Shown: positions 1 through 19,695 of the stretch, in pieces
How the letters are laid out: every line of letters starts with the position of its first letter
Position numbering within the stretch: position 1 is the first letter of the stretch
Source: a virus
IMG/VR virus record: IMGVR_UViG_3300025035_001128
DNA: 46,544 bases
Strand: one strand, 5' to 3'
The notes under the pieces: generated by a model
The model's database searches: none
What the model saw: the letters and a program-made list of their open reading frames with translations, nothing else
Told to the model about the DNA's origin: nothing
Translations under genes and position numbers: made by a program

Positions 1-378
1 ATGAACCAAGAAGAATTTAAAAATTTATCTATTGAAGTTATTAATAGCAATACAAAAGCTTTTATAGAAATGATTGAACTAATTGATACCCCATTTCAAA
101 AAGAAATAATTGAATTCTCAAAAACAAATAAAAATGTTTTTGACTTTTTTGTTATGTTGGTTTTAACCTCTTATTCTTTAACCGCTTTTAATGGAACAAA
201 AACAGAAAGAAAAGACACAAGAACAAAGATTCAGGAATTAGTTGTTGCTCACCCTATATTAAAAGAATGTTTATCTTCTTATTTACAATTAGTGAAAGTT
301 ATAGACATCAATCCATCACTTTCACCTAAAGATGCAATAAAAAGCCAAAAAAATCTAGAAGAAATTCTTTTAAGTTAA
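1..378 (+). CDS. hypothetical protein (may be 5' truncated by window edge)
   Basis: 125-aa ORF followed by a hairpin at 390-417. Confidence 0.6.
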   Translation: MNQEEFKNLSIEVINSNTKAFIEMIELIDTPFQKEIIEFSKTNKNVFDFFVMLVLTSYSLTAFNGTKTERKDTRTKIQELVVAHPILKECLSSYLQLVKVIDINPSLSPKDAIKSQKNLEEILLS

Positions 379-389
379 CTTACAAATAA

Positions 390-417
390 ATAATCCTCAT
401 TAAAAAATGAGGATTAT
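390..417. terminator. bidirectional terminator-like hairpin
   Basis: ATAATCCTCAT-TAAAAA-ATGAGGATTAT between convergent genes. Confidence 0.7.
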
Positions 418-434
418 TATTAATATTCTATTTA

Positions 435-1367
435 TTATTTAGGTTTTGGTGAACTTTGTGAAGATATTGGAACTTGAATTGTTGCACTTACCTTACCTTG
501 TTCCATTGCTTTAGTTCTTTGAAACTCCATTACTTGATTAAAATTAATGTCATTATCTTTTGCAACCTTTTGATAACCTGCTATTTCTTTAGATAAAACT
601 TTGTTTCTTAAATCAAGAATTCTTTCAGTTGCATTAGATCTAGCTTCTTCAGCTTTAATTTCTTCAACTGCCTGAATCTTTTGTTCTATAGCTTCTGATA
701 ATTTAACATTAGCTATCTTTATATCTGTTACAGTAAATGTATCCTTACCATACAATTTATCTAATTGTGCTTGTAAGTCACCCTTTATTGTATCTTCTAC
801 TTCTTGTTGTTTATCTATTAATTCTTCTGATTTAAATTTTCTAACTGTTTGAGAAACTGATGATCTTGCTTCTTTAATTATATAAGATTGCCCCAACACA
901 AATACACCAATCTCTCTATTGTAGACAATATCTCCAGTTTTAATTAGAAAAGGTACTGCATTGTTTTTATTTACTTTAATTCCAACATTTAAATCCAAAT
1001 CTTTTAACATAACTCCATCTGAATCTTTAGGTGTTACATCTTCTATTTTTACTAACGACTCTTTCCCATAAATTTCAAAAATTTTATCAAACACATTCAG
1101 TTTTATACCATTATTTAAGGTTTCTGTATTATATGTTCCATCAAAATATTGTTCAACTCCAAAGTTTCCTTCTGAAATTGTTTGAGAGTTAAATACTGAC
1201 GTAACTGCACCTAAAGCTAGCACTACTGCCATTATGGTTGCTCCTGTCTTCATTGCCATTACCAATGATTCTTTTCTTTCGCTTTTCTTCCTCTCCAATT
1301 CAAATTTCTTATCTCTATTTTCTTTTTCTAGCCTGTTCTTTTCTATCTCTTGCTCGTAATATTCCAT
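435..1367 (-). CDS. SPFH/band-7/prohibitin (HflC-like) membrane protein
   Basis: N-terminal coiled coil, one TM helix, then SPFH-like text (ISEGNFGVEQYFDG, KDSDGVMLKDLDL, IANVKLSEAIEQKIQ); start moved to ATG 1367, which has an AAGGA RBS. Confidence 0.85.
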   Translation of the reverse strand: MEYYEQEIEKNRLEKENRDKKFELERKKSERKESLVMAMKTGATIMAVVLALGAVTSVFNSQTISEGNFGVEQYFDGTYNTETLNNGIKLNVFDKIFEIYGKESLVKIEDVTPKDSDGVMLKDLDLNVGIKVNKNNAVPFLIKTGDIVYNREIGVFVLGQSYIIKEARSSVSQTVRKFKSEELIDKQQEVEDTIKGDLQAQLDKLYGKDTFTVTDIKIANVKLSEAIEQKIQAVEEIKAEEARSNATERILDLRNKVLSKEIAGYQKVAKDNDINFNQVMEFQRTKAMEQGKVSATIQVPISSQSSPKPK

Positions 1368-1438
1368 ATATATTCCTTTAAAAAAATCTTTGTATTTATA
1401 TTTTACTAAAATTAAAGATAAAGTCAAAAATAACAAAT

Positions 1439-2236
1439 CTATTTCCAACCAATTTCTATATTATTAAAAACTAATTCAAACTCTTTATTTGGATTATCTG
1501 CAAACACAACGGCAAGAGTAAAACCAGTTAATTCATTATTTATTAAATCTTTTTCAGGATTAGATCTGTAATTATCTATTACTTCTTTCCCTCCACCAAC
1601 AAGTATATTTTTCATGTCTCTAATTTCATAATACCAAGAATTATTATTTCCTGAATATACTTCCACTTGATATTTCTGATTATCTCCTAATACTGAACCA
1701 CAGTTACTTCCACCCCATACATAGTTTCCTTTTGAATGCCATGTTTCTGGTGCTGAAGTTATTGCTCCTTTACATCCATCAAAACCATTTTGATTATTAA
1801 AGTCTAAATTTCCAACAATAAAACCACGTCCACGATTCCAATTAGCACCACCTTCATGCTTAATAGCTACAGCAAAATGAACTCCTGGATTTGTTGTGAA
1901 TAAACCTTTTGATTCAAAAGTAAATTTGGCATACTGAGTGTTTAATAATTTATCTTTTTTTAATATTCTAAAAATATCAAATATGAACTCCGAACTCGAC
2001 CCATTTGCAACAGAATGACTCGGTAGAATTTGCTCTCCCCAATCATAAGTTATTTTTGTTCTATTTCTCGTTATATTTGAATTTGCTTAAAAATATCTTG
2101 AAAAAACAACCTTCATTGGATTTTTATATTCCTCAAAAACTTGTGGTGTTGCCGCATTAGCATTAGAAATTCCACCACAACCAACCAATACTATTCCATT
2201 TACCAACAGAAGCAAATATATCAAAAAATAACGCAT
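1439..2236 (-). pseudogene. predicted lipoprotein interrupted by one in-frame TAA (2087-2089)
   Basis: ATG 2236 gives MRYFLIYLLLLVNGIVLVGC (lipobox LVGC); the same frame stays open to 1439 except for one TAA. Confidence 0.65.
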
Positions 2237-2392
2237 AAAATCCTTTATTTGTGTTTATCTTAAAGATTACACAAACAAAAACACTTATGTCAATATTTTT
2301 TAAACCTTAAAAAACATAAAGCCAAAATATTTGGGCTTTATAATCTTTTTCTTAATGCACCATTAACGATGCACTATCTATTTAATATGCGA

Positions 2393-3571
2393 CTAAAGAT
2401 GCAAAATAATCATTGAACCATACTTTTCAAATAACATAGATAATCCAAATAAACTTCCACCAAGTAATGCTGAACCCAAAATTACACTGCCCTTATAACC
2501 AACATAACTAACCCACTCTAAAACAAACAAAGTAAAAAAGATAAAAATAATACTTGCAATAACTTTAAAATCGTAAAAAAAGTAACCCAATGTTGCCAAA
2601 CAAGCTAGGAAAATAAAGATTAAAGTATAACCAATAGCTGAATCACTTCTATAAAATGGTGAAGAACCTGTTAATAAAGCAACACAAATAGCAATGGTGC
2701 AATAGTATTGAATACCATCATTAAAATATGATGTATATTCTGGCACCATTTGAAAAGCAAAAACATAACCAATTAGCACAAAAATATGACCAAATACAAC
2801 TGAAGAAAGCATTTCCTCTTTAAAATAAAGGGTAAGAACACCGGGCCGATAAGACAATCCAAAAGAAAACACACCAGAAATACATACTGCCGCAAAGAAA
2901 CCAAAAATAGATGATTGATATACCATAGCTAAAATTCCAAAATATAACATTCCCCCAAAGCTAATAACACAACCAATAGGAATCCCCCAATTAAAAATTC
3001 TTTTAATTAAAAGTTGCAATTTTGGATGAGAAGTAATAATCCAACCCAAAACCATAATATTTGCAAAAGAAGAAAATAAGGCAATATAAAATGATTGAGA
3101 TTCCCAAATTAATGTTGGGTAAATAATCCCCAACAAGCCACAGCTAATGAATGTTCCTTGGTAAATAATCACAGGAATGGCTACAATAAATTTCCAAAGA
3201 CCATAAATGATTTTTTTAATAACCCCACCAAATGCTAACAATAGGAAAATAACACCGACTACCTTCATGAAATTAATCCAAGAAAAGTATTGACTCCAAC
3301 TCACAGAACTTTTTTCTAATTCCTTAATTTGTTCTTTAGTTTTAGGCTTGGACGAATCAACTTTTGTCAGTAATGTATTTTTATCAATTTCAGTAATATA
3401 TTTTTGAGCAACCTCTCCAGCCATTTTTTGACTTAAATATCCATCTTTTTCCATGGATGAAATAAGACCTGTTTTAATATCTGCTGGTGTCAATAAAGAT
3501 GTATCCGCAGCAAAAACTGGTAACATGCAAAAAAATGACAATAGCCAAACTACAAAAATTTTATATTTCAA
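2393..3571 (-). CDS. multi-pass membrane protein, unknown function
   Basis: 392 aa, signal-like N-terminus and about 10 hydrophobic segments. Confidence 0.75.
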   Translation of the reverse strand: MKYKIFVVWLLSFFCMLPVFAADTSLLTPADIKTGLISSMEKDGYLSQKMAGEVAQKYITEIDKNTLLTKVDSSKPKTKEQIKELEKSSVSWSQYFSWINFMKVVGVIFLLLAFGGVIKKIIYGLWKFIVAIPVIIYQGTFISCGLLGIIYPTLIWESQSFYIALFSSFANIMVLGWIITSHPKLQLLIKRIFNWGIPIGCVISFGGMLYFGILAMVYQSSIFGFFAAVCISGVFSFGLSYRPGVLTLYFKEEMLSSVVFGHIFVLIGYVFAFQMVPEYTSYFNDGIQYYCTIAICVALLTGSSPFYRSDSAIGYTLIFIFLACLATLGYFFYDFKVIASIIFIFFTLFVLEWVSYVGYKGSVILGSALLGGSLFGLSMLFEKYGSMIILHL

Positions 3572-3721
3572 AATGTGCTCCGATTATTTAATAAGTTAAC
3601 ATTATACATTGAATTTAGTTACTTTAAATTTGATTTAATCAAGGTTTATGTTTTAATTTTTAATCAACTTTGCTATAATCTTATTATAAATTAATTAAAA
3701 GATAGATACCTAAGGATACAT

Positions 3722-4060
3722 ATGAAAATTAAATGGCTTGTTCAAAATGTTGGATTTTCTACAACCAATTTAGACTTAACAGAAGACACTCTTAAACGAA
3801 TGGAATTGCCATATGAATTGTTTGGAATTTCTCGTTTATTAAATTTTGTTATAAATTTAGAAAATATTCTAATCAATCCAGAGGAACAATTTATTATTCG
3901 TGGTGGAACATCTTTATTATCTTTATTAAATAAAGTAGAAAACTTGAAAGAAGTTAATCCAAATTTGTCTGAAGAACAGCTACAACTTTCTGACATCTAT
4001 ATCAAAAATTACTCCGAATGGCATAATTTCTTTCTTTTTCACCAAATCAAAAACAATTAA
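3722..4060 (+). CDS. hypothetical, possibly a truncated N-terminus of an ATP-grasp-type phage protein
   Basis: TGCTATAAT promoter and AAGGA RBS; KWLVQN start resembles phage ATP-grasp proteins; overlaps the 3' end of the convergent ORF. Confidence 0.4.
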   Translation: MKIKWLVQNVGFSTTNLDLTEDTLKRMELPYELFGISRLLNFVINLENILINPEEQFIIRGGTSLLSLLNKVENLKEVNPNLSEEQLQLSDIYIKNYSEWHNFFLFHQIKNN

Positions 4061-4291
4061 TTGAGGCTCCATTGCTTTCGTTATATGAATAATTTTTGTT
4101 GCTACACCAACAGTAATATTTTCAATTTCATTTGAAACACAAATAACCAATGTATTTAGTTTTAATTGCAGTTCAATTTCTTTACATTCTTTTTTCCTTA
4201 AATCTTCCTGCCTTTTACTTTCAGCCCATTCAACATAGACCTCAGCTTTAGCTTCATCTATTTTCTTTTTACAATTAAAAATTCCAAACAT
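3980..4291 (-). CDS. hypothetical protein
   Basis: 103-aa ORF with upstream AAAGG. Confidence 0.55.
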   Translation of the reverse strand: MFGIFNCKKKIDEAKAEVYVEWAESKRQEDLRKKECKEIELQLKLNTLVICVSNEIENITVGVATKIIHITKAMEPQLIVFDLVKKKEIMPFGVIFDIDVRKL

Positions 4292-4427
4292 TTTTTACCT
4301 TTAAAGATGTTGTTTCCACAGTTAGAGCATAACACTTTTAGACCAATATCTTTTGTTTTAACAAAATAATTATTTATTTCTATATCGTTATTTTTGTTTC
4401 CATATTATAATTAACCATCAATAATTA

Positions 4428-5312
4428 ATGAGATATAAAATGAACTTTTTAATTGGCTTTGAATTTGAATTTGGTTGGCTACCAAATATTTTACTTGATG
4501 GTGCAATTGAATCAAAAAAGGTTACAAAAGGTGCCTATTTTGATACTTATGTATATAAAGATGTTAGAAAAAGCTTAAAAAACTTTCTTGGCTCTGAATT
4601 TAAGAATATTAGAGAAATAACTGAAGACCCTAGCCTTTCTTTTGCCAATCATTATGATGATGCACATTTTGGTGTTGAAGTTATTTCTAAACCTATGGAA
4701 GATTCATTAGCTATTAATTTTTGTAAATTAATTTTAAAATGGATGAAACAACACCCACAAATTATAACCAATTTAACATGTAGTCTTCATGTTAATATTA
4801 GTTCTTCTGATAAAGAAACCAATAAAAAATTAGATTATTTTTCCATTTTATCTAATACCCCTCAAGAGGAAATTCTAGAAAGATTTAAACGAACATCAAA
4901 TAAGTATTGCCAATCAACCAATACTAAAAAATTTGGTATTGCAATTGATTCAAGGATTACGAAACAAAGGACTATTAATTTTTGGCTAAAAAGAACACAT
5001 CAAAAATCAATTTCTGTTATTACAAACAATTCAAGTATTTTAAATCGGTTTTCTAGTAAAGATTTACTACCTAAGGTAGAAACCCTATATTTTAACAATC
5101 CTGAAAACGCCAAAGAACTTATTAAAGGGTTTTTTATTGATCATCTTTCTATTTCAAAAAAAGACATCTCTATTGTTGAAAAACTTAGTCCAACAAATAA
5201 AAGATATTTTGAATTTAGAATGATAGGAAACACTGATTATCATCTTCGTATACCTGAAATAATGTCTACAATTAAAAAATACAAAAAAGCATTAAAAAAC
5301 AGTATCAAATAA
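4428..5312 (+). CDS. putative amidoligase (COOH-NH2 ligase-type)
   Basis: motifs GFEFEF, EDPSL, GVEVISKP, CSLHVNIS, YFEFR. Confidence 0.65.
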   Translation: MRYKMNFLIGFEFEFGWLPNILLDGAIESKKVTKGAYFDTYVYKDVRKSLKNFLGSEFKNIREITEDPSLSFANHYDDAHFGVEVISKPMEDSLAINFCKLILKWMKQHPQIITNLTCSLHVNISSSDKETNKKLDYFSILSNTPQEEILERFKRTSNKYCQSTNTKKFGIAIDSRITKQRTINFWLKRTHQKSISVITNNSSILNRFSSKDLLPKVETLYFNNPENAKELIKGFFIDHLSISKKDISIVEKLSPTNKRYFEFRMIGNTDYHLRIPEIMSTIKKYKKALKNSIK

Positions 5313-5318
5313 TAACCA

Positions 5319-5348
5319 TTGATTTTATTATTTCCTTAATGTTATAAT
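5319..5348 (+). promoter_or_regulatory. sigma70-like promoter
   Basis: TTGATT-18 nt-TATAAT with extended TG. Confidence 0.65.
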
Positions 5349-5354
5349 CAAAAT

Positions 5355-5623
5355 GTAAAAAGTGTAGGATGGATGGAAACATAATCAATTTCCACAAAGA
5401 TTAACTGTGTGATTTATTACACAACTCTCGTATTGGTGCGGCTGAAGATAAAAAGCTTAATCCATAAAGTCTGGGTAACCACAGCCTAGCAACTAAGATG
5501 ATTCGATTGTGAGTGAAAAACGGATCATGCTGCCTATTTATTTAGGTTTTGCGGTTAGCAATGGTAACAGAGACTCATATAACATATTTAGTTATGTTCA
5601 AAAAGGTGTTTCGGCACTTTTTT
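5355..5623 (+). ncRNA. candidate structured non-coding RNA, family unrecognised
   Basis: promoter upstream, terminator 5600-5623, locally higher GC, several stems and a potential pseudoknot, no RBS-led ORF. Confidence 0.6.
5600..5623 (+). terminator. intrinsic terminator
   Basis: AAAAGGTG-TTTCGG-CACTTTTTT. Confidence 0.75.
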
Positions 5624-5710
5624 GTTTATTAAAATCAAAAACTAAAATTTTTTTGCTATATTTAAAATTTTTTATATAATAATAAATTAAATATTAAACA
5701 ACCATAATAT

Positions 5711-5935
5711 ATGAATACAGACGAATTAACCTTATTTATTGACCTTACTCAAGCACAACAACAAACGATTAGTGTTTGGACTATGGATATTAATACACAT
5801 GTTATTGTTTATCCTAAAAAGCTATTTTGGGTTTTTTATAAAAATATTCCAATTATTGACGAGAATAGAAACATTTTAATATTTACTAAATTTAGTGATG
5901 CTTTAAATAAAATAAAAGAATTAAAAAACCAATAA
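5711..5935 (+). CDS. hypothetical protein
   Basis: 74-aa ORF with upstream TATAAT. Confidence 0.55.
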   Translation: MNTDELTLFIDLTQAQQQTISVWTMDINTHVIVYPKKLFWVFYKNIPIIDENRNILIFTKFSDALNKIKELKNQ

Positions 5936-5937
5936 CA

Positions 5938-6699
5938 TTATTTTCTTAAGCAAGTAATTTGTAAATCTTCTTTCATTTCATCCCAAGAACTATCAAAACT
6001 TATTGCCATAAAACTACATTCATATTTAGATAATTTTGATTTTTTAAATTTGTCGGGGTCATTGAATATATATGGTATAAATTTACTATGAGCTAAAACA
6101 TAAGAGTTTTTATCTTTAATAACAAAATCCATATACTTTAATGTTGATAGTATTTTTTCATCTAATTCTGCTTCGTTTGATTCAACAATATTAATTAGTT
6201 CCATTGCTTTTGGATTCTCTTTCTTTTTCATTGATTTTATTTCAACATCTAACATTGCTTTCTTTTCTTTATAATGCTCTTTAAACTTATTTATTGAACT
6301 TTTAATAATTTCTGTTTTTGAATCATCTGTTGTATCCATCAAGTAATTTTTTAATGCTGTTGTTAATGTTAAAATTGTTAGCCTTGTTTTAGCTTCATTT
6401 ATATCACTTGGCAATGTAACAATATTAGAATCGTTAATCATTGCTTCATTATATTTTACAAAGGCTACATCATCATGATTTTGGTCTAAACATTTTTTAT
6501 ATAAAAGACCACGCGTTGGACCTTCTTTCCATAAAAATTTTGTTATTAAATTTGGTTTAAATTCAGAGCAATCAAATTTAACCTCTTCCAATACAATATC
6601 TAATATTGGACGTGAAATGTCTACAATATCTCTTTCAGCATATGCATAAGTTTGATTTATTGCTATAAGTATCAAAACTATTAAATTTAATTTTTTCAT
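5938..6699 (-). CDS. hypothetical exported protein
   Basis: 253 aa, signal peptide MKKLNLIVLILIAINQTYAYA. Confidence 0.7.
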   Translation of the reverse strand: MKKLNLIVLILIAINQTYAYAERDIVDISRPILDIVLEEVKFDCSEFKPNLITKFLWKEGPTRGLLYKKCLDQNHDDVAFVKYNEAMINDSNIVTLPSDINEAKTRLTILTLTTALKNYLMDTTDDSKTEIIKSSINKFKEHYKEKKAMLDVEIKSMKKKENPKAMELINIVESNEAELDEKILSTLKYMDFVIKDKNSYVLAHSKFIPYIFNDPDKFKKSKLSKYECSFMAISFDSSWDEMKEDLQITCLRK

Positions 6700-7080
6700 T
6701 TTTGTTAGTAACTGTGCTATTTTTAATATTTAATATACTTATGTGAATCTTATTTTTTGAATATAATCATTCATATACAATAAAAATTTATTATTATTAT
6801 TACCCTGAAATCTATTTCAAATTTATTATTTTGTCAATTCAAATAGTAATAAATATTTCACTTTTACAAGTAACTAACTAATATTTTTAGGTTAATAAAA
6901 CAACCCATATATTTTAATCAATCAATTCATCCTCATTATTTCCTTTATAAAATAACTCTTTTAATTCCTCAATTAATTTATCACCTTTAAAGTAAACAAA
7001 ACCATTTTCATATTGTGCCAAATAGGTATATGGAAGCTTACGATTTTGCATCAAACCATATTTCAACAATAAACCTTGTA

Positions 7081-7337
7081 CAATAGGTTGTTTGTAGGTG
7101 AGTTGAAATGGAATGAAGTTTCTTCAGCTTTAGGAAAGAATAGAAATCATTGGTATAAAAACATAATGAATTATATTCAACCTACGGTAGTTAAACCTCA
7201 ATCTACTCAAGAGATTAATCCTTTTGAGTAGAACCAAAGCTAGCATAAGCTATCTTTGGAAGTGTAGGTTTATCAGCTTGGTTTAACAACCCCTACCAAG
7301 CGACTTGTTTTTCAACAAGGTTTCAGATGGGCTTGCT
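7081..7337 (+). mobile_element. 257-bp 3' remnant of a TnpB element (tnpB C-terminus plus right end/omegaRNA scaffold)
   Basis: near-identical to the reverse complement of 18452-18708; ends in GGGCTTGCT. Confidence 0.75.
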
Positions 7338-7443
7338 TAAAAGATGGCTAATAATTTTTAATTAATATTTAATTTGAACTTGTAATATTGTGAATTTTTG
7401 CTATTATATAAATAAATTAAAATTAAAATATGAGGAAGAAAAT

Positions 7444-7620
7444 ATGTCAAGTTCACCTAAAACATTAAAAGAAAGATTGGATTGTCTGGAGCAAAATGAT
7501 TTAATTTTCAAAAAAGGAAAACAGGCAGTTATGGAGACAATTCAGGAAATAAGATTAAAAATAAAGTTAAGCCAGACCCCAAAAAATTTGGACATAAAAA
7601 AACCACAAACTTTAATTTAA
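7444..7620 (+). CDS. small hypothetical protein
   Basis: GAGG RBS before ATG 7444. Confidence 0.5.
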   Translation: MSSSPKTLKERLDCLEQNDLIFKKGKQAVMETIQEIRLKIKLSQTPKNLDIKKPQTLI

Positions 7621-7636
7621 ATTTTGACTTGAACAA

Positions 7637-8279
7637 TTAAAGATTTTCTCTCCAAAATGATATCGCTCCAATTCTTTTATCTGTGTCTGACATTCTTGAA
7701 TGTAAAGCGAGGTATCTATATTTTTTAGTTTTTAGAATAATTAGAGTAACTATTTTTCTTAATTTGAATAGGAAGAACTTCTTCTTCATTTACGATAACA
7801 AAATCAATTCCAACAGCATCTAATTCTGCACTAGCTAAAACCTTCCAATTAAGTGATTCCTTTTCAATTCCTTGAACAGTTGCATAAACACATTGGGCTT
7901 CAGTTACAATTGAACACCATTTTTTATAGATTCTAGCTTTAATATGATTCCAAAATGCATGAGATTTATTGTTTCTCATTTTATTAATTGTTTTCTGACC
8001 CTCAGGGTCTTCACCAGGAAATAAATATTTTGACATTTGAGTAGCTAACTTCATTCCATGATTTTTCCTAAACCAAACCCAAAAGTCATGAAAACATGGA
8101 ATTTCTAAAGAATTTGATGGACTTAGCTTATACAATAAACTCATTTTAATATCTTCTTCAAGATTTGGAACCTCAAATCCACGATACATTGTAGTAAAAC
8201 CCATGTAATCTTGAAATGGATGAGCTAACAACATGGTTGAAAAATGCTTGATTTTGGATGGAATATTTTGGATTTGCAT
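7637..8279 (-). pseudogene. PD-(D/E)xK-like nuclease with an apparent frameshift near 7725
   Basis: ELDAVGIDFVIV...PIQIKK resembles the D...QxK nuclease motif; reading continues in another frame (KKYRYLALHSRM...) to 7637. Confidence 0.45.
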
Positions 8280-8439
8280 GATTTGACTCTATTGATTAAC
8301 TATTCAATGATTATATCACAAAAATCAGTGTCAATCCTTATCTTCACTAAGAAAATAATTTTTTTCATCTTATTTATTTTATTGCTTTTAAAAATTTTAT
8401 AGTTTATACTTCTTCTACTTCTGATACTTAAAATTATAT

Positions 8440-10203
8440 ATGACAACTAAAAATTTACAAAGTAACAAATTATCTTCTCAATTAGCTTCTATGTTTTTTG
8501 AAACATCTACAGAAGCTATTCTTATTTGTGATTCAAATAATATTATTATTAAAGTTAATAATGCTTTTGAAAAAACAACAGGATACTCTGAAGAAGAAGT
8601 GATAGGTAAATCACCAAATTTTTTAAAGTCTGGAAGACATGATCAAAGTTTTTATGAAAATATTTCTTTCTCTCTTATAAATAATGATTTTTGGTGTGGA
8701 GAAATTTGGGATAAAAGAAAAGATGGGACAATTTATCCAAAATCAATTGTTATGAATGTTATTAGAGATAACGATAAAAATATATTATATTATACTTCTT
8801 TATTTACCGACATTTCTCAAAGTAAGAAAAAGAACCAACATTTAAACATGTTATTAAAACGTGACTATTTGACTGGTCTTGACAACAGATTATCTCTAAA
8901 TTCTCTCCTTAATGAAGATATTGAATACAATGAACCTTTTGCTGTCTTATTTATGGACATAGATAATTTTAAATACATTAATGACACTCTTGGACACTCT
9001 ATTGGAGATAAACTCCTTATTTCTGTAGCCAATAGATTAAAATCATTACTTCGTGCCCAGGATACTATTGCCAGGTTAGGTGGCGATGAATTTGTTGTTG
9101 TATTAAGAAATTTTATCAATAAAAACAATATTGTTCTTGTTGCTAATAAAATTTTAGATTCTTTGCAGGAAGAATTTAAAATTTATAACAACAAACATAT
9201 TAAAGATGAGTTTTATCTAACTCTTTCTATTGGCATCTCTCTTTACGAAAAAGATGCAAAAACTGTGGATGATTTACTTAAATATGCTGACCTAGCTATG
9301 TATAATGTTAAATCTAAAGGAAAAAATGGATTTTTCTTTTTTAATGAAACTCTACTTGCTCATAATGAAGAAAAATATAATTTATTTTCATATGAACACG
9401 AGGTAAGATGTATTCTTAAAGATAAATCTATTTTCCTTAAAAATATAGATAAAACTTATTGTAATAGTGGACAAATTGTCCCATATTTTCAACCAATATT
9501 TAAAGTTGATAAAACCACTCAAGAAATAGTTAGTTATGAAGTCTTAGCTAGATGGATTCACCCAACAAAAGGATTAATTTCACCAGCTAAATTTATCCCA
9601 ATTGTTGAAGAATTTGAATTGATGACATCATTGTTTTTTCATATATTCCATCAAAGTCTTAAGTTTTTATCTAAAACAAAGAAAAAACTTTATTTTAATG
9701 TTTCACCAAAACAACTTAATGATCTTATTTTTTTTAATACTTTAATTAACAAAATTGATTATATTAAAAGCCATCCAGAAGAATATGGATTTAGTAAAGA
9801 CTTCAACATAATAGAATATATTGGGTTTGAATTTACTGAAGATTCATTTATGTATAATAATAGCTTTATTATTGATAAATTAAATCAAATTAGTCAACTT
9901 GGTATTGAGCTTGTTATTGATGATTTTGGAACAGGATATTCATCCTTTTCATATCTTAGCCAAATGCCAATAAGTAAAATAAAAATTGATGGTTCTTTTA
10001 TTAGAGAAATAAATAAAAATGTAAAAACCAATCAAATTATTTCTTTTTTAATTATTTTAGGTAAAAATCTTGGCATGAGTATTGTTTCTGAATGTGTTGA
10101 GAATCAAGAACAATTAGATTGGCTTATAGAACATGGTGGAATACTAATTCAAGGATTTCTACTTGGTAAACCTCTTCCTGCTGAAGAAATTATTATTAAT
10201 TGA
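8440..10203 (+). CDS. PAS-GGDEF-EAL diguanylate cyclase/phosphodiesterase
   Basis: PAS (TGYSEEEVIGKSP, WCGEIWDKRKDG), DIDNFKYINDTLGHSIGD, RLGGDEF, EVLARW, DDFGTGYSS. Confidence 0.95.
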   Translation: MTTKNLQSNKLSSQLASMFFETSTEAILICDSNNIIIKVNNAFEKTTGYSEEEVIGKSPNFLKSGRHDQSFYENISFSLINNDFWCGEIWDKRKDGTIYPKSIVMNVIRDNDKNILYYTSLFTDISQSKKKNQHLNMLLKRDYLTGLDNRLSLNSLLNEDIEYNEPFAVLFMDIDNFKYINDTLGHSIGDKLLISVANRLKSLLRAQDTIARLGGDEFVVVLRNFINKNNIVLVANKILDSLQEEFKIYNNKHIKDEFYLTLSIGISLYEKDAKTVDDLLKYADLAMYNVKSKGKNGFFFFNETLLAHNEEKYNLFSYEHEVRCILKDKSIFLKNIDKTYCNSGQIVPYFQPIFKVDKTTQEIVSYEVLARWIHPTKGLISPAKFIPIVEEFELMTSLFFHIFHQSLKFLSKTKKKLYFNVSPKQLNDLIFFNTLINKIDYIKSHPEEYGFSKDFNIIEYIGFEFTEDSFMYNNSFIIDKLNQISQLGIELVIDDFGTGYSSFSYLSQMPISKIKIDGSFIREINKNVKTNQIISFLIILGKNLGMSIVSECVENQEQLDWLIEHGGILIQGFLLGKPLPAEEIIIN

Positions 10204-10204
10204 A

Positions 10205-10603
10205 TTAGTTAAAACCAACTAATTTTACCTCAAAAACTAATGGTGTATTGGGTGGAATAATATTATTCATCCCTCTAATTCCATATGCTGTTTCTGATGG
10301 ACAATCTAATTTTGCTATGCCACTAACCCTCATAGCTTGAACCCCTGTTGTCCAACATGGTATTACCTGGTTTAAATTGAATTCAATAGGTGATGTTGAC
10401 TGATCAAATATTTGTCCATTTTTAAACATTCCTCTATATTCAACCTTTACAATTGAATCGTATTTTGGATGTTCTCCATTACCAACTTTTATATGAGTAA
10501 CTACAACACCACCAGCAAGATTTACACCATTTAATTCATTTACATTTATTTGAGCTATTGCTGATGTTGCAAACATTGCTGTTATAACTAATATTTTTTT
10601 CAT
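10205..10603 (-). CDS. FKBP-type peptidyl-prolyl isomerase, exported
   Basis: signal peptide; VKVEYRG, QVIPCWTTG, AYGIRG, IPPNTPLVFEVKL. Confidence 0.9.
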   Translation of the reverse strand: MKKILVITAMFATSAIAQINVNELNGVNLAGGVVVTHIKVGNGEHPKYDSIVKVEYRGMFKNGQIFDQSTSPIEFNLNQVIPCWTTGVQAMRVSGIAKLDCPSETAYGIRGMNNIIPPNTPLVFEVKLVGFN

Positions 10604-10731
10604 ATACTATCTTTTCAAAGTAATTTAAACATTAGTTCAACATGTATTTAATGTCAATTAAATTTAACCTTAATTGTATTGCTAACTTTAACTTAGTTTA
10701 ATTATATTAAACCAATTGTTTAAAAAATATT

Positions 10732-11538
10732 ATGATAACAAAAATAAAAACAAAAGAACTTTTAAAAATAATTAATCCAATAACTGATTTAATATCATTT
10801 GAAGGTGAAGATTTTAAAATAGATTTTTCTGAATTGAAAAAATATGTTGAAAAACCTAGACAACTTAATGTATTTAAGCCTTCTGAAAACAAAACAATTC
10901 AATTATATAAAGATTTAGCTCTTTATATAATAAATAGTAGTGAACCCAAAATTGTAAATATTGATTTAGATAATAATCAACCAATCAACTCAGGGGTTTA
11001 TGAATATATTAAAAACATTTATCAACAAGAAGAATACACCATGATTAATATTCCAGAAGATGGTAATAATTCTATTTTCATTAAAAGTAAAAAACTTTTA
11101 AATAATCCATTATTAAATATTGACGAAGCAAAAGATGTAACCTTTTCTAAACTATCTACTGTTTTTTTTAATTCTGAAAAAATAGTAGATAATGAAAAGT
11201 TTTTTTGGAAAGAAGAAAATAATGATGTTTATTCAAATCAAAATTTTGTTATTAAAAAATTTAATGACATAATAAAATCAAAAAATTCACTTGATGAAAA
11301 ATATTTATCTTTTATTTCATTAATTAAAATTACTGATCAAAATCTTCTTGATTCTGATAGTTTTAAAATTGCACTTATTGATATAAATAGTGAACCATTA
11401 AATAATTTGTTGATTAATAAAAAACATAAAATAAAAAATGAAAATTTTTCTATAGATTTTAGTTCTAAAGAAATTCATGACAAAATAATATCTAATATTA
11501 AACGAAGGAAAAACAACTATTCTAACCACCATATTTAA
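10732..11538 (+). CDS. hypothetical protein
   Basis: 268-aa ORF. Confidence 0.7.
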   Translation: MITKIKTKELLKIINPITDLISFEGEDFKIDFSELKKYVEKPRQLNVFKPSENKTIQLYKDLALYIINSSEPKIVNIDLDNNQPINSGVYEYIKNIYQQEEYTMINIPEDGNNSIFIKSKKLLNNPLLNIDEAKDVTFSKLSTVFFNSEKIVDNEKFFWKEENNDVYSNQNFVIKKFNDIIKSKNSLDEKYLSFISLIKITDQNLLDSDSFKIALIDINSEPLNNLLINKKHKIKNENFSIDFSSKEIHDKIISNIKRRKNNYSNHHI

Positions 11539-12937
11539 TGAATACAGAGAGAGTTTAAATTCTTTAATATATAGAGTTAAAAATTTGAAAAGCGATTAAA
11601 CTTCTTTACAAATTACAAATAGAAGACTTTAATAATAATTACTATATTGATATTAAAAAAATCATTAACTCACCTAAAACAATTGAATATCTAATTAATA
11701 AATATCATGCTTATTCTTCTAATGATAATGAATTATCTATAGTTTCTTGCTTTCATTTGCTCAGCAAAGACAATAAAGAAAATACAAAAATAATAGATAA
11801 ATATTTACAGTTAATTACATCAAAAAACATGAATGGTGAGGATTATATTAGCAATACTGCACTATTTAATCTACCTTTTAATTTATTTAATAAAAAACCA
11901 ATAATGAATAAAGTATTGAAACATTTAGATTTTGAAGTATTAAATCAACATATTAATGAAAAAAAATAAGTAATGAATTATTTATTAATACAGATTACAT
12001 TTTAGAAAGTATTAATATTGTTTCAACATATAAATTACATAAATTGTTAACTTTGTTGTTAAAACCAGATGATATTAATAAAGAATTTATTTTAAAAATA
12101 ATAAAGGTATCACCTTATTTTTACAAACACATTCAAGAGAACCCAAGAACATACAAGAATTTAAACAAAGATGAAGATATTATCTCCACTGCTATATCTA
12201 GTGGATTAAATTTAAAAAAAATAAACATTAATTCAATTAAAAATTTATTATTGTCAGATTCAAATGACAATCAAAATATTTGTGTGAAATATCTTATTGA
12301 AACAGATAACGTTAATGATTATTCTCTATTTCAAGATAAAGATGATATGCAAAAATTTAATTTAAAATATAAACATCTTGAATATTTGTTTTTCAATAAA
12401 GATAGCAATTATTCATATGAAAACAAAGATAGAAATAAAATGCTTTCAAAATTAAAAACAAAAGAGGAAGTTTTTGAATTATTTGAAAAAATTGACAACC
12501 TTAACTTTCCATATCGCATTAACAATATTGGTTTAATTGATGGACTACATCCAAAATTAAAATCAAACAATGTAATAATTGAAACAATAATTGAAAAACA
12601 TGGAATCATTCCATATTCAAAAATAGATTAATCTTTACAATTAAATTTTGATTTCACAATTTCCATATTAAAAAATAATCCTCTTTACATTAAGAATTTG
12701 CCACTAGAATTTTTTAATAATATTGATTTCTCTCTTTCTTTTTCTGCATTAATGGATAATGGAGTTTTTGATGAAAAACCTGAACTTATTCCAAATTTTG
12801 TATCTAAATTTTTTGAAAATCAGAATGTCACTTCAAACTTTCAAGATTATTTAAAAACTTATATTGAATATACAGGAATGAAAGAAACCCTACACACTAA
12901 CACTAACACTAAAATTTCTAAACGAATTAAAATTTAA
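11538..12937 (+). pseudogene. fragmented large hypothetical gene (weak DUF4116-like repeats)
   Basis: ORFs 11757, 12044 and 12698 join through a frameshift in the A-run near 11965 and an in-frame TAA at 12629-12631; TAATG-coupled start; ends KRIKI. Confidence 0.6.
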
Positions 12938-12983
12938 TAGTTTGCTTTACTTTTTTTTTCTCTTAAAATATATATAGTTACGA

Positions 12984-14363
12984 ATGAATATAATGAAAAA
13001 ACTAAATAGAGCTGGACTTAATGCAAGGGGATGGAATGATGAGGCTATAGATGTCCTATTGGGCAGACCAAACCATACTACAGAGACAGAAGAACTTTGG
13101 GATTTTAAGATATTTCAACCTAAAGAGCAGAACCTTTCTTTTAAAAAATTCACTACTGCTGATGATTTTTATAAAAGACAAGAACTATTTATTAAACAAT
13201 TAGAAGAACAAACCATAATTGGAATTAACCAAGTTAAAAATTTATCTATAGAATTTAAAGAACATGATTGCTTATTAAAAAATAGTAAAAAATATAACCC
13301 ATTTGAACCCATTCTTCATTATGTTCAAGATAACTTTAAACCTGACCCTAATGGCTCATATACCCTCTTTACTGATGGTTGCTTTAAGTCTATTGGTTCA
13401 CAAGCTTTTGCTAGCTGTGCGGGCTGGATTTTAGATAACAATACAAATAAAATTATTATTGAATTTACTAAAGTTGTTGAACTCAATGATGAAAATCCCA
13501 AAAGAAAAGGTATGCCTGATTTTGAATTAACAGGAATTAATGAAGGTGTTAAAGTTATTGAATTATTGGGAATTAAAAATGTTCAATGCTATACCGACTG
13601 TATGGGTGAAGCTAGAATAATTTTAGCTGCTGTTCACAATATCGGTGATAGTCGTATTAATACTGTTTCCTATTTATATTCTTCAATTATTGATACCCTA
13701 CAAAAAACTAATTCATCTATAGCTTGGATTCCAAGAGAATATAACTCTCATGCTGATGAATTAACTAAAGTTCCTCTAAATGCTTGGTATGATGCATATA
13801 AAAAATCTGTTGTTGAAATTAATCACTTTAAAGATAATAATTACATTGTAGATAGAGAGAAGGATATGTTCTTTCATAATGATAAATTCTCTTATTCAAC
13901 AAGAGATTCAGCTAAAGATAGATATCAACTTATTTATAACCAATCATTTGGGAAAGATTTTATATTAATTTATGATACTGTAAATGATAGCTTGGAAACT
14001 ATTCATGCTGAACCAAGAACATTTTCTCATATTCCTGAAGAATTAAATGACTCTATTAAAAGATTAAAAAAGAATAGTCTAGACGGAACCCATACTTTTA
14101 AATTAGCTAATGCAATAAAAGACTTTTATCATTTACCTAACTTAACAATTTGTGTTAGACCAGGAACAGTAGCAACTTGTAATAAACTTACTCCAATACC
14201 TACATTTTTACAAGAAGAGTATTTTGAATTACATAAATCCTTTAATGACTTTCCGGGTAATATAACCATTACTGATTTTGATAAAAAATTAGAAAAGAAA
14301 ATTAAAAACTTTCTTGAAAAAGAATTCTTCCCCAAACCTAAAAAAGTTAAGCCTTTTGCCTGA
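12984..14363 (+). CDS. RNase HI-like domain protein with N- and C-terminal extensions (paralog 1)
   Basis: LFTDG, FEL, YTD, WIPREYNSHADEL catalytic pattern; alignable with 34567-35925. Confidence 0.8.
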   Translation: MNIMKKLNRAGLNARGWNDEAIDVLLGRPNHTTETEELWDFKIFQPKEQNLSFKKFTTADDFYKRQELFIKQLEEQTIIGINQVKNLSIEFKEHDCLLKNSKKYNPFEPILHYVQDNFKPDPNGSYTLFTDGCFKSIGSQAFASCAGWILDNNTNKIIIEFTKVVELNDENPKRKGMPDFELTGINEGVKVIELLGIKNVQCYTDCMGEARIILAAVHNIGDSRINTVSYLYSSIIDTLQKTNSSIAWIPREYNSHADELTKVPLNAWYDAYKKSVVEINHFKDNNYIVDREKDMFFHNDKFSYSTRDSAKDRYQLIYNQSFGKDFILIYDTVNDSLETIHAEPRTFSHIPEELNDSIKRLKKNSLDGTHTFKLANAIKDFYHLPNLTICVRPGTVATCNKLTPIPTFLQEEYFELHKSFNDFPGNITITDFDKKLEKKIKNFLEKEFFPKPKKVKPFA

Positions 14364-14450
14364 ACTTAAATAGAAAAAATATATCACTTATATTGACTAA
14401 GTTGCTAAATTTAAACAAAAATAATACAATTACATCTTTTAAGGATTATT

Positions 14451-15410
14451 ATGTTAGGAGCTATTATTGGTGATATTATTGGTAGTGTTTATGAGAACAT
14501 TCCTAAACTTCCTATTCGTCAAACTGAGCAGATGACAGATGATTCATTTCTTACCCTAGCTGCATTGAATTGGATGACCGACTTAGACTTAAGTAAGTTT
14601 AAGTATCTTTTTGATAAAAACAAATCTCATCAAAACCGTGAATTTGTTCTTATAAAGCAAGAAATATTTAATAATGCTGAAAAAAACCTTTTGAAATGGT
14701 ATGACATTGGTATAAAAGAAAACATTAATCAGAATAACCTTATTCCAGCCTTTAGTCCTGGATTTGATAATTGGGTGCTTGCTAAAAATAATAAAATAAT
14801 TTCAAAAATAAAATACAATAGTAATACAAATGGTTGTTTGATGAGAAATTCTCCAATTTCATTTATCGGACACTCTAAATCTTTATCCCTTGAACATGTT
14901 CTAGAATTAACTAAGATTTTTTGTTTAACTACTCATACTCATGAAGATAGCCTTCATACAACAGAAATACATTCATCACTACTTTATTTGATTTATTCCA
15001 AGGTTATTAATAGCTCAAACATAAAAAACATTCTTAGTAAAGAGAATTCAATAATTACATCATTACATCCAAACTTAATTTCTATTAAACCTCTTGATTT
15101 TTGGATACCAAAAGAAAAAGATGTTTTAGATAATCCAAAATTAAAATTTCTTTGGGACTCTAAAAACTCTCTTAATATTGCTTTGTCTGCAATTTATTAC
15201 TCTAAGAGCTTTAAAGAAACTATGGACTTTTGTAATGCTACCAACATGGATACAGATACTTATTGTGCTATTGCTGGCCCCATTGCTGAAGGATTATGGG
15301 GGATTGATCTGATTAATATGGGAAAAGGTATGAAAATAATAAATTTAATTCCTGAAGCTAACCAATTAATCAATAAAACAATTAAAGTACATTATTTTAA
15401 CATTATTTAA
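14451..15410 (+). CDS. ADP-ribosylglycohydrolase (DraG/ARH family)
   Basis: MLGAIIGDIIGSVYE, MTDDS, NGCLMR, DTDTYCAIAG. Confidence 0.9.
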   Translation: MLGAIIGDIIGSVYENIPKLPIRQTEQMTDDSFLTLAALNWMTDLDLSKFKYLFDKNKSHQNREFVLIKQEIFNNAEKNLLKWYDIGIKENINQNNLIPAFSPGFDNWVLAKNNKIISKIKYNSNTNGCLMRNSPISFIGHSKSLSLEHVLELTKIFCLTTHTHEDSLHTTEIHSSLLYLIYSKVINSSNIKNILSKENSIITSLHPNLISIKPLDFWIPKEKDVLDNPKLKFLWDSKNSLNIALSAIYYSKSFKETMDFCNATNMDTDTYCAIAGPIAEGLWGIDLINMGKGMKIINLIPEANQLINKTIKVHYFNII

Positions 15411-15411
15411 A

Positions 15412-15807
15412 TTATTTCTTTTTCCAATATCCGCTACCAACATCGGTATACCCGTTTTTTTCTAAAAACTTACTTACTTCTCTTTCCCCAATATTATATG
15501 ACCTTTCACGGTTATATTTATCATCAGTTACAAATTCAGATTGAGCATCAACAGCCTTTTTAATTTCCTCATAGTCAACAGGAATACGACCTCTACGATC
15601 ACCTTCGGCAGATATAAAAATTAAATCTGTTGAAACATACTCTCCACAATTTCCCAAATCTGCTGCCGCTGTCATATATTTATGAGTAGATGATACCAAA
15701 GAACCTCTTCCAATAAATTTGTTGGCCGCATAAGCTTTTTTTAAATCTTTTGAAAAATAAGGATTGGTATTTTTAACTTTGCTTATACGTTCGTGTAGTG
15801 TTGTCAT
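15412..15807 (-). CDS. hypothetical protein
   Basis: 131-aa ORF with upstream -10 box. Confidence 0.65.
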   Translation of the reverse strand: MTTLHERISKVKNTNPYFSKDLKKAYAANKFIGRGSLVSSTHKYMTAAADLGNCGEYVSTDLIFISAEGDRRGRIPVDYEEIKKAVDAQSEFVTDDKYNRERSYNIGEREVSKFLEKNGYTDVGSGYWKKK

Positions 15808-15858
15808 AATGTTTATTTCGGAATTATATTGTTGATATTATAGCATATTAATGCTAAC

Positions 15859-16158
15859 ATGTCTAAAACCAATAGGGAATTTATGAATACTAAATTAAAA
15901 ATTTCAATAACAAATAAAAATCTTATTTCTATACTAGTTGACGACCTAGAATACTCACCTGAAGAAGTTGAAGAAATGAGTATTGATGAAAAAATAGATA
16001 GATTTGTAGGATCTGGTTATTTTGAAAATGAATTTGGTGGGGTGCTAGATAAAAAAGATGATAATTTTATTGACTTTGAAACCGTTTCAAATGTTACAGG
16101 AAATCCAGTATCATTAGATTCTTATTCACAACTTACACAAAAAAAACCTAAACCATAA
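15859..16158 (+). CDS. hypothetical protein
   Basis: 99-aa ORF. Confidence 0.6.
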   Translation: MSKTNREFMNTKLKISITNKNLISILVDDLEYSPEEVEEMSIDEKIDRFVGSGYFENEFGGVLDKKDDNFIDFETVSNVTGNPVSLDSYSQLTQKKPKP

Positions 16159-16164
16159 TTTAAT

Positions 16165-16413
16165 ATGCTCAATCCAAGAATTAAAACAAAAGAAATTAAC
16201 CTATGTCCAATGTGTGGAAGTCGGGCAGAAGTTTTTGCGACTGGCGCTGCTGAATGTTATGGCTATGCCTGGCAAAGCTATGGAGTTGAATGTAAAGATG
16301 AATTCCACAAGCATTGCGATATGAATTTGAGCATTAGTGCTGATTTTTTCAATCTTGATGTTCATAATGACACCTTAATTGATATGTGGAACAGCATTAA
16401 AACAAGAAAATAA
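16165..16413 (+). CDS. Lar-like zinc-ribbon protein
   Basis: LCPMCGS...VECKDEFHKHC...WN pattern typical of Lar restriction-alleviation-like proteins. Confidence 0.55.
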   Translation: MLNPRIKTKEINLCPMCGSRAEVFATGAAECYGYAWQSYGVECKDEFHKHCDMNLSISADFFNLDVHNDTLIDMWNSIKTRK

Positions 16414-16870
16414 ATAAATTTAAATATCTTCTATTGGTTCACTTACTTCTATAATCTTATTAATTCTTTCTAAATCTAATGCTCCAGATTTAACCTGTAT
16501 AACTCTTATTTTTATTTTTTCATCAACTCTCTATCTGAATTACATTCAAATGCTCTTATGTTTGGTGGATTTAATAGCGATAGCTTTAAAATTAAGTTTA
16601 AAAATCTTTCTAAACTTGGTTCTAGGATTTTAAATGATAAATATTTAACCCCAAAAATTAATAACAATAATAATAATAAAGGAAAGAATCATGTATAAAA
16701 ATGAATCTATTTTACAACCAATATGAATGACTTTAAAACAAAAAACCCAAAACAAATTTAACCAGGAGAATATCGTGTTATAGATTTTTAAACCACCATA
16801 ATAGTTTTATTATTTTGAAACTTAAACTAGAGGGTTACATATTTATTCATTTTTTAAATAAGGAGTTATT

Positions 16871-17212
16871 ATGAATACACAATTTGAAAGCAACGAGGCA
16901 CTACACACTAAAGAATTTATTTCTGTTTGGAAAAAAATTAGTAATGATGTGAGGATTAAACCAACATTTGATTCTTATCACAATAAAATAAAAGGATATA
17001 TCTACCCTGAACATCATATTCTATATAATATAGTTAGAGGTTTTCCTGCCAATAGAGGATTTACAGATGGAACTGAAGGATTTAAAAATGCTTTATCTTT
17101 TTTTAGTAAAAATTACTATTTAAATAAAATGTTTGAACCATTTGAAGGGCATCTATCTACTGAAGTATATAATGAAATACTAACTGAAGTTAAAACATTA
17201 CTTAATTCTTAA
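16871..17212 (+). CDS. hypothetical phage protein
   Basis: AAGGAG RBS, 113 aa. Confidence 0.7.
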   Translation: MNTQFESNEALHTKEFISVWKKISNDVRIKPTFDSYHNKIKGYIYPEHHILYNIVRGFPANRGFTDGTEGFKNALSFFSKNYYLNKMFEPFEGHLSTEVYNEILTEVKTLLNS

Positions 17213-17222
17213 TTCTAAATAC

Positions 17223-17246
17223 AAATGGCTGATAATTCAGCCATTT
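17223..17246. terminator. bidirectional terminator-like hairpin
   Basis: AAATGGCTGA-TAAT-TCAGCCATTT between convergent genes. Confidence 0.75.
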
Positions 17247-17288
17247 TATTTATCTATTTCACCTTATTCATTAGGTGATGTTAAAAAA

Positions 17289-17510
17289 CTAACACAACTC
17301 TTTTTGCTCTAGTTTTGAAATACCTTCTTTAATAATTTTTTGAATTTTTTCTTGATGATATTGAACTGTATCAAACCAACGGTAAGCCCCCTGTTCCTTG
17401 GTTGAATCGTTTTCCCACTTTTCAATACTACCATCCTTAAATACTCGGAACTCACCAATATCTGTTTCAACAACAGCATATGTTACCACTTGAGATGCAA
17501 AAATAGTCAT
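17289..17510 (-). CDS. hypothetical protein
   Basis: AAGGA RBS and TGTTATAAT upstream. Confidence 0.65.
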   Translation of the reverse strand: MTIFASQVVTYAVVETDIGEFRVFKDGSIEKWENDSTKEQGAYRWFDTVQYHQEKIQKIIKEGISKLEQKELC

Positions 17511-17665
17511 TTAATTTTCCTTAATTGTTTTGATGTATTTATTATAACACAATTATTTTTTCACATAATATAAGCAAGTTACGTCGTTATGTTATTTTGG
17601 CCTTTATTGACTTCACCCGTCATTATTCTACGATTTTGGTAACTTAGCTTTATAAAGGATTTAAA

Positions 17666-18011
17666 ATGCTTAATAAAAAAACCTCAATCATCAGTGTAGC
17701 TTTTCTAATATTATTTGGTATGTCTTCTATGGCTAAGGCCGAAGTAGATGTTGGAGCTGCGAAAACATTTAGCAAAAAGTAATTCTTGTTTTAAGTGTCA
17801 TTCTGTTGATAAAGAAAAAAAATGACTTTCTTTTCAAAAAATTTCATTAAAATATAAAAGTAAAGCAAATTCACAAATTCTAGTTTTTGATGCATTCACT
17901 AAAGATAGAAAAGTTAAATTTGCTGATGGTTCTGAAGATAATCATAAAATAATTGATACAACCGATGTGAATAGCAAAAATAATTTATCTAGTTGGATTT
18001 TGAGCCAATAA
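17666..18011 (+). pseudogene. class I cytochrome c, disrupted
   Basis: signal peptide, +1 frameshift near 17769, then AKSNSCFKCHSVDKEKK*LSFQKISLKYK...HKII...WILSQ (CxxCH); in-frame TGA at 17823-17825. Confidence 0.8.
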
Positions 18012-18202
18012 TTCACACAATTTAATTAATATAACTGACTTTTCTACTGAATTAAAATTGGAAAGAATATTAATTTAATTAGAGAAAACCAAAAACCAAA
18101 TAATATTCCCACATTTAAGCCTTAAATTTAAATTTCTTAACAAAGATTAATATCTTAATATTATATGTTATAATAAAACTTAAATAACCTAAAGGCATAA
18201 AT

Positions 18203-18397
18203 ATGTTTACACCACAAGAACTTTCAAAACTAGGATTCATTCCACAAACTAAGTATAAACAAGGGCTGGCTGTTTCAACTGGTATTACTGCACCACAAGA
18301 AATAACTGAAGAAATCTTTCGTAATATTCCATTACATATTCAAATTAGATATTCACCTTCATCAAATAATGGAATTCATCAATTAGCATACAAGTAA
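18203..18397 (+). CDS. hypothetical protein
   Basis: TGTTATAAT and AAGG upstream; 64 aa. Confidence 0.55.
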   Translation: MFTPQELSKLGFIPQTKYKQGLAVSTGITAPQEITEEIFRNIPLHIQIRYSPSSNNGIHQLAYK

Positions 18398-18451
18398 TTT
18401 TATAATAATACCATTAGGTATGGTTTAAAAATAAAGAAAAGCACTATTACT

Positions 18452-19398: not shown

Positions 19399-19449
19399 AA
19401 AAAAACAAAAGCATTGATATAGTAATGACTTTTGCCATTTTTTGTTTAT

Positions 19450-19695
19450 TCATGACAATTCCTTTAATTTAATTCCAAAACTAGCCCCTAACTTCTTTTG
19501 CCACATAATTATTTCTCTTAAACTAATAGTTCCATCCTCAGATGCATTTATATCCTTAATCATTAATCCACCAGCAATAATAATTTCTTTTGATAATAAT
19601 TGAATAAACATTTCTAACCAACCATCCTCATCTGCTTTACTTTCTAAGGTTAGTTCATTTGTTTTTTCAATAATTTTACCTATTTTTTCGTTCAT
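19450..19695 (-). CDS. hypothetical protein
   Basis: 81 aa, GAG RBS. Confidence 0.6.
   Translation of the reverse strand: MNEKIGKIIEKTNELTLESKADEDGWLEMFIQLLSKEIIIAGGLMIKDINASEDGTISLREIIMWQKKLGASFGIKLKELS

Follow-up and report, generated by a model that had tools for sequence, protein, structure and literature searches.

Stand-alone bacterial small RNAs that act in trans have their own sigma-70 promoters and Rho-independent terminators, lie between genes and are often species-specific. ROOL and GOLLD RNAs occur near tRNA arrays in phages. The locus described here lies in a 46,544-nucleotide stretch of DNA (IMG/VR virus record IMGVR_UViG_3300025035_001128), which is called the window below. 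It occupies a 398-bp gap between an Amidoligase_2-like gene, whose protein has 16 homologues, and a downstream open reading frame (ORF) of 74 amino acids (Table 1). Like a stand-alone small RNA gene, the studied unit combines a promoter of the genome's own type, an intrinsic terminator at the 3' end and a lack of protein-coding capacity. The first-pass annotation had proposed a stand-alone transcription unit free of ORFs at this position, and the genome-wide promoter pattern and the terminator both support that proposal. We put the chances at about even that the unit is an independently transcribed, ORF-less, lineage-specific non-coding RNA of ~270 nt, which would act as a regulator.

Table 1. 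Features of the locus and its neighbours; positions are those of the window.
Feature	Position	Strand	Remarks
Amidoligase_2-like gene	4428–5312	+	290–294 aa; Pfam PF12224, E=7.9e-4
TTGATT, weak -35-like hexamer	5319–5324	+	18 nt 5' of the -10 box
Extended -10 promoter TGTTATAAT	5340–5348	+	fits the genome's TGNTATAAT promoter pattern
Body of the putative RNA	5355–5598	+	~245 nt, 36% GC, without an open frame
AGGA, Shine-Dalgarno (SD)-like	5366–5369 (feature 5366–5384)	+	17 nt 3' of the -10 box
Paired motifs TGGAAA / TTTCCA	5374 / 5389		
Paired motifs TGTGTGA / TTACACA	5406 / 5417		
Paired motifs GGCTG / CAGCC	5440 / 5482		
Predicted closed 3' domain	5468–5575	+	AGUCU/AGACU long-range helix; MFE and centroid structures agree
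Paired motifs ATGATTCG / CGGATCAT	5498 / 5521		
Proposed pseudoknot partners TGTGAGT / ACTCATA	5508 / 5573		
Paired motifs CCTA / TAGG	5533 / 5543		
Paired motifs ACATA / TATGT	5582 / 5593		
Intrinsic terminator	5599–5630 (hairpin 5599–5624)	+	11-bp stem, UUCG loop, T-run
Separate TATAAT box	5675–5680	+	31 nt 5' of the 74-aa gene's ATG; TTGCTA-16-TATAAT
74-aa ORF, no assigned function	5711–5935	+	39% identity to L010 6025–6252

The promoter belongs to a pattern that recurs across the window. The element TGNTATAAT is present in 25 copies, 24 of which are intergenic and directed at a gene or a tRNA. Most copies end 23–43 nt (most commonly 29–31 nt) before an ATG, or 9–40 nt before a tRNA, and the leaders that follow them typically carry TAAGGA ~8 nt 5' of the ATG; among words found upstream of ORFs, 7-mers of the box show the strongest enrichment. 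The promoter named in the first-pass annotation, TGTTATAAT, fits this pattern. It lies 28 nt past the amidoligase stop codon and is among the few sites of the TGNTATAAT type with no ORF behind them, the next ORF of at least 60 aa beginning 363 nt further on. A generic -35/-10 (sigma-70) scan shows no enrichment, with 126 sites over 20 kb versus 142 in shuffles, and is uninformative in DNA this AT-rich; the Mimivirus-type promoter AAAATTGA is likewise not enriched. Since a recognisable -35 element is lacking from most of the window's TGNTATAAT promoters, the TTGATT hexamer upstream of the -10 box is probably unimportant. The TATAAT box of the 74-aa gene stands at the commonest spacing among promoters in the window, and this gene therefore has a promoter of its own. 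The promoter pattern and the separate TATAAT box together are good evidence for a transcription start near ~5355, the coordinate itself being a prediction.

Further TGNTATAAT sites include those at 3671, 8310–8318, 15837–15845, 23378, 27976 and 42726. The same pattern is found in the related contig L008 (five sites in 5.9 kb), and it was not found in 10.8 kb of L010, a 2.23-Mb relative. At four further places in the window, a TGNTATAAT promoter is separated from the next gene or tRNA by a long leader (120–350 nt) or by tiny ORFs only: 26810–26988 and 27465–27594 on the plus strand, and 30340–30695 and 31035–31043 on the minus strand. These may be additional small-RNA or leader units, and none of the four is similar to the RNA at 5355–5625. 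The promoter at 30695 lies before what had earlier been noted as a second candidate ncRNA. The position of TGNTATAAT ~30 nt before start codons is the more reusable result of this analysis: the pattern calls ORF-less transcription units from sequence alone, and it points to a handful of further candidate units in the window as well.

At the 3' end of the unit, the hairpin and its T-run form the only terminator-like site within 4300–7000. This terminator, earlier described as clean, is among the three strongest in positions 1–20000, and the other two stand exactly at gene ends. The terminator scan found none between the amidoligase stop codon (5312) and 5599, and read-through from the amidoligase is therefore also possible. 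The 245-nt body is 35.9% GC, which places it at the 96th percentile of the window's 245-nt windows; GC is 19% and 14% in the two flanks, and the mean for coding sequence is 27.8%, so that the earlier remark on a GC content above the flanks (36% versus 14–19%) is borne out. Several coding regions in the window equal the GC content of the RNA body, and tRNAs and TnpB-end repeats account for several of the other non-coding islands of high GC. Four features of the unit are established: the promoter pattern, the terminator, the GC island and the lack of coding capacity. The two copies of an imperfect AT-rich direct repeat (5342–5360 and 5629–5647, matching at 16 of 19 positions), spaced 287 nt apart, flank the RNA body together with its terminator, and the first copy includes the -10 box. 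The match is probably due to chance in DNA of such base composition. A MITE-like insertion, of which this repeat would be the sole sign, was rejected, the repeat not being significant.

These features suggest how an RNA could be made from the locus. RNA polymerase carrying the housekeeping sigma factor would start at ~5355 from the extended -10 promoter, transcribe ~270 nt and stop at the intrinsic terminator, both ends of the product being approximate and its production and stability predicted from these signals. The 5' third of the product would be loosely structured and carry the SD-like AGGAUGGAUGGA, and the 3' part would fold as a modestly stable closed domain. Such an RNA may be a trans-acting regulatory small RNA that works through base pairing or through binding of a protein or the ribosome; the product is probably not a catalytic or elaborately folded RNA. 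Counting against this proposal, among other observations, is a target search over the window's gene starts, in which shuffled RNA reached the same best duplex energies. A role for the RNA as a trans-acting partner of two short tRNA inserts was rejected, the complementarity being weaker than in shuffles.

The lack of homologues and the absence of the locus in relatives also count against a regulatory RNA. Four contigs of the same species are 100% identical over window positions 1440–7197, RNA locus included, so that same-species copies carry no information on covariation or selection. These contigs are structurally different from 7198 on. The organism is present in many public samples, among them the sources of L001–L004. 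The protein cluster contains no variants, and identity to the closest of the other amidoligases is 54%. No match was found in a phage database at the DNA or protein level, and IMG/VR, searched by protein and with three DNA patterns, returned one random coding match only. Of two metagenome pattern scans, the first gave no match and the second two random ones. GTDB genomes scanned with the amidoligase alignment yielded none, and the same scan with an FKBP alignment recovered nothing but five distant MAGs of Gammaproteobacteria and Elusimicrobia (37–49% identity), with no match to the RNA. Searches with nhmmer, blastn and tblastx over all fetched loci of relatives found no homologue of the RNA.

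The surrounding genes form a block that is common to the relatives L005/L010 (the 2.23-Mb contig), L006, L007 and L012, where the order is 163 aa (-), 75 aa (+), 258 aa (-), TaqI (-), H-NS (+), amidoligase (+), FKBP (-), 112 aa and GGDEF-EAL. In the window, the amidoligase and the RNA unit sit between the homologue of the 163-aa gene (3980–4291) and the 74-aa gene. The RNA locus is missing in the relatives at both ancestral junctions. First, their amidoligase is followed by a 24-bp spacer with its own terminator and no comparable element. Second, the region upstream of the 75-aa gene, the homologue of the 74-aa gene, spans only 146–158 bp and has no RNA locus. In L008 and L033, the amidoligase is followed by a promoter, then a DUF6900 gene of 60 aa, then a terminator; the DUF6900 gene is unrelated in sequence to the RNA unit. 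Given this arrangement in L008, the position after the amidoligase is one that carries self-contained cassettes.

Other differences from the relatives accompany this block. Window positions 3980–10603 are rearranged relative to L005/L010/L012 (three related species): the amidoligase has moved beside the 163-aa homologue, FKBP now follows GGDEF-EAL, and neither H-NS nor the 112-aa gene was found there. A TaqI-like restriction endonuclease gene is split in the window (6962–8279, minus strand), the relatives' residues 215–258 corresponding to 6962–7093 and residues 1–184 to 7728–8279, with a 257-bp TnpB-end repeat (7081–7337) between the pieces. L010 has a relatively GC-rich spacer of 247 bp (5778–6024) between the convergent 258-aa and 75-aa genes, which abut in the window; its similarity to the RNA unit is at chance level.

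No protein is evident within the unit. All six frames of the RNA region are closed by stops, the longest stop-free run (60 codons) passing through the terminator. A Pfam search of frame fragments gave no match, and translated comparison with the window and with every related locus gave no similarity. The SD-like AGGA stands at the usual Shine-Dalgarno distance from the -10 box, as judged against the other 24 promoter leaders. The sole ATGs after it, at 5369 and 5373, open ORFs of 11 codons (to 5404) and 3 codons (to 5384), and their spacings of 0 and 3 nt from the AGGA are too short compared with ~8 nt in real genes. The first-pass annotation had noted that no ORF is led by a ribosome-binding site. 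An alternative genetic code as the cause of the low ORF density was unsupported.

The AGGA is also an expected residue of a decayed gene cassette, and its normal distance from the promoter counts against the regulatory RNA for this reason. The main alternative, possible though we think it rather doubtful, is that the unit is such a cassette, in which promoter, AGGA and terminator survive, the frame has been destroyed and any transcript is functionless. The distance from the AGGA to the terminator fits ~75 codons, a common gene size here, and an intact 60-aa cassette occupies the same position in L008. Decay of other genes in the window (for example the split TaqI-like gene), the lack of conservation of the unit in relatives and the equally high GC of several coding regions are all consistent with this explanation. 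However, no frame is open beyond chance, and the frame of the ATG at 5369 has 5 stops in ~90 codons. There is no translated similarity to the L008 DUF6900 protein, to the relatives' neighbouring genes or to the window. Decay sufficient to erase every frame should also lower GC toward the 14–20% of true spacers, yet the body remains at 36%. Specific origins as a remnant of FKBP, H-NS, the 112-aa gene, the neighbours of the 74-aa gene or the L008 DUF6900 gene were rejected in the absence of similarity, and a search with the proteins next to orthologous genes in relatives found no remnant at the RNA locus.

It is unlikely that the unit is a long 3' UTR of the amidoligase, possibly processed to a 3'-derived small RNA, with the terminator at 5599 belonging to the amidoligase. 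The stretch from the stop codon to 5599 contains no other terminator, and the relatives' amidoligase is directly followed by a terminator of its own, both of which favour this arrangement; a genome-type promoter so soon after the stop codon argues against it. Such a 3' UTR is also compatible with the regulatory RNA proposed above, the two overlapping rather than excluding each other.

It is quite unlikely that the unit works in cis on the 74-aa gene, as an attenuator or riboswitch leader, or that it is a micro-ORF unit encoding the peptide of 11 or 3 codons. The unit is upstream of the 74-aa ORF on the same strand, its terminator lies 86 nt 5' of that ORF's ATG, and ATG codons do follow the AGGA. 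Against a leader stand the -10 box of the 74-aa gene at standard spacing, the short upstream regions of its homologues, which hold no such element, and the lack of a riboswitch or T-box match in Rfam to the RNA region; the short AGGA-to-ATG spacings speak against micro-ORFs.

The first-pass annotation had favoured a ribozyme or other structured RNA from outside the recognised classes, with a pseudoknot. The promoter, stems and pseudoknot partners that it listed are all present, each within 1 nt of the position it gave. Their pairing was compared with a background of 1000 dinucleotide shuffles. The region contains 8 hairpins of at least 6 bp against a shuffle mean of 7.9, a stem of at least 8 bp is present in 71% of shuffles, and a 7-bp pairing of a hairpin loop with downstream sequence, of the kind proposed for TGTGAGT and ACTCATA, is present in 38%. 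The stems, the 8-bp hairpin and the pseudoknot pairing are thus all at chance level, which leaves the pseudoknot unsupported. The minimum free energy of the whole unit is -62 kcal/mol (z=-1.24), with z=+0.54 for the 5' half and z=-1.65 for the 3' domain (5461–5600), which 11 of 200 shuffles match or exceed; the minus strand folds no worse (z=-1.63). The 3' domain, in which the AGUCU/AGACU helix encloses the 8-bp hairpin (5498–5528) and a small hairpin (5533–5547), is the best-folding part but does not reach significance. Folding at the level of shuffles also counts against the regulatory RNA.

Comparison with described RNA families gave no assignment. At the gathering score, Rfam 15 identifies tRNAs only; relaxing the threshold to E<=10 on 5250–5720 adds just a spurious SNORA13 match (E=6), and at E<=5 on the whole window nothing appears in the RNA region. 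ARAGORN finds 12 tRNAs and no tmRNA, and the tmRNA models of Rfam have no match in the RNA region. The earlier statement that the unit is not a recognisable tmRNA, RNase P RNA or tRNA therefore agrees with both programs, and the covariance-model check that the first-pass annotation had suggested yields no family at the gathering score or at E<=10.

A new structured-RNA class or ribozyme with the proposed pseudoknot is very unlikely: a length of ~270 nt exceeding that of most regulatory small RNAs, the GC island, a 3' domain that is closed in both MFE and centroid structures, and look-alikes of RNase P CR-I/CR-V and group I R/S elements seen by eye (AAAGUCUGGG; ACAGAGACUCAUA) are outweighed by stems and pseudoknot at chance level, z scores from -1.65 to +0.54, no Rfam match even at E<=10, absent P4-type complementarity, group I-like elements in the wrong order, no homologue and hence no covariation, and the missing locus in the relatives' syntenic regions. 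That the unit founds a new structured RNA family, so far in one uncultured AT-rich lineage, is likewise very unlikely; one possible form of such a family would be a compact RNA with the AGUCU/AGACU helix and flanking purine-rich junctions as its functional core.

The first-pass annotation took the replicon to be a huge phage. The block around the RNA does not support this, syntenic as it is with bacterial-type contigs, although jumbo-phage-like genes do occur elsewhere in the window. On the phage side, the window is rich in ORFans and has a tRNA array, recorded contigs reach up to 221 kb, and several window proteins match jumbo phages best. A gene cluster at 22744–45048 has PHROG and jumbo-phage matches, including phrog_10415 (E=1.8e-36; 47% identity to Agrobacterium phage Atu_ph07), a metallophosphoesterase (phrog_1649, E=6e-45), and phrog_1818, 5086 and 21047. 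Phage-derived DNA may make up part of the window. On the bacterial side, the relatives' contigs with which the block is syntenic carry H-NS, GGDEF-EAL, TonB and a LytS-type histidine kinase as well as TatA, ClpS and HDOD genes, and one of these contigs is 2.23 Mb long. The RNA-bearing part is more likely to be the chromosome of a bacterium of an uncultured AT-rich lineage, perhaps with phage-derived segments. Directly after a tRNA-Met gene (20320–20396) lies an island of 50% GC (19765–20320) with a 110-aa ORF (19944–20276, minus strand) that has no Pfam or PHROG match; the island looks like foreign DNA inserted beside a tRNA gene.

Resemblances to catalytic RNAs do not extend beyond short motifs. 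By eye, AUAAAGUCUGGG resembles CR-I (GAAAGUCCGGG) of RNase P RNA (RF00010/RF00011), ACAGAG resembles ACAGAA of J2/4, and AGAUGAUU resembles CR-IV. However, no covariance model matches even at E<=10, and the strand after ACAGAG cannot form an 8-bp P4 with AAAGUCUGGG; only the 5 bp of AGUCU/AGACU pair, in another register than P4, and an S-domain and P1 are not evident. RNase P RNA was rejected on the lack of a model match and the impossibility of the P4 helix. Similarly, CAGAGACUCA is reminiscent of the R element of the group I core (CAGAGACUA) and can pair with AUAAAGUCU, which is reminiscent of the S element. Unlike in group I introns, the S-like element precedes the R-like one, the unit is not inserted in a gene and has its own promoter and terminator, its complementarity to the two short tRNA inserts of the window is not significant, and no intron model in Rfam matches. 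The reversed R/S order and the lack of a model match led to rejection of a group I intron.

Non-catalytic RNAs offer closer parallels in setting or composition. With T4 species 1 and 2 (rnaC/rnaD) and with ROOL and GOLLD, the unit shares the character of an orphan stable-RNA candidate in a region with a tRNA array and phage-like genes. It differs in lying 15 kb from the tRNA genes and in residing on a replicon that looks bacterial rather than clearly phage, and from ROOL and GOLLD also in being much smaller and in matching neither Rfam model. As in CsrB/RsmY, GGA motifs occur, three of them in the 5' AGGAUGGAUGGA and two of these in GGAUG context. However, only 4 GGA are present in ~270 nt, against ~3 expected (an estimate from base composition), they are not presented in repeated hairpin loops, and no Rfam model matches. 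If expressed, the RNA would be a species-specific regulatory RNA of an uncultured, ORFan-rich and very AT-rich organism, and it would help to annotate that genome without introducing a new principle. The stand-alone trans-acting small RNAs of bacteria are described above. Although the present unit, at ~270 nt, exceeds most of them in length and is a candidate by sequence alone, it shares with them a promoter, a body free of ORFs, an intrinsic terminator plus U-tail, an intergenic location, a GC content above that of the spacers of an AT-rich genome, and restriction to one lineage.
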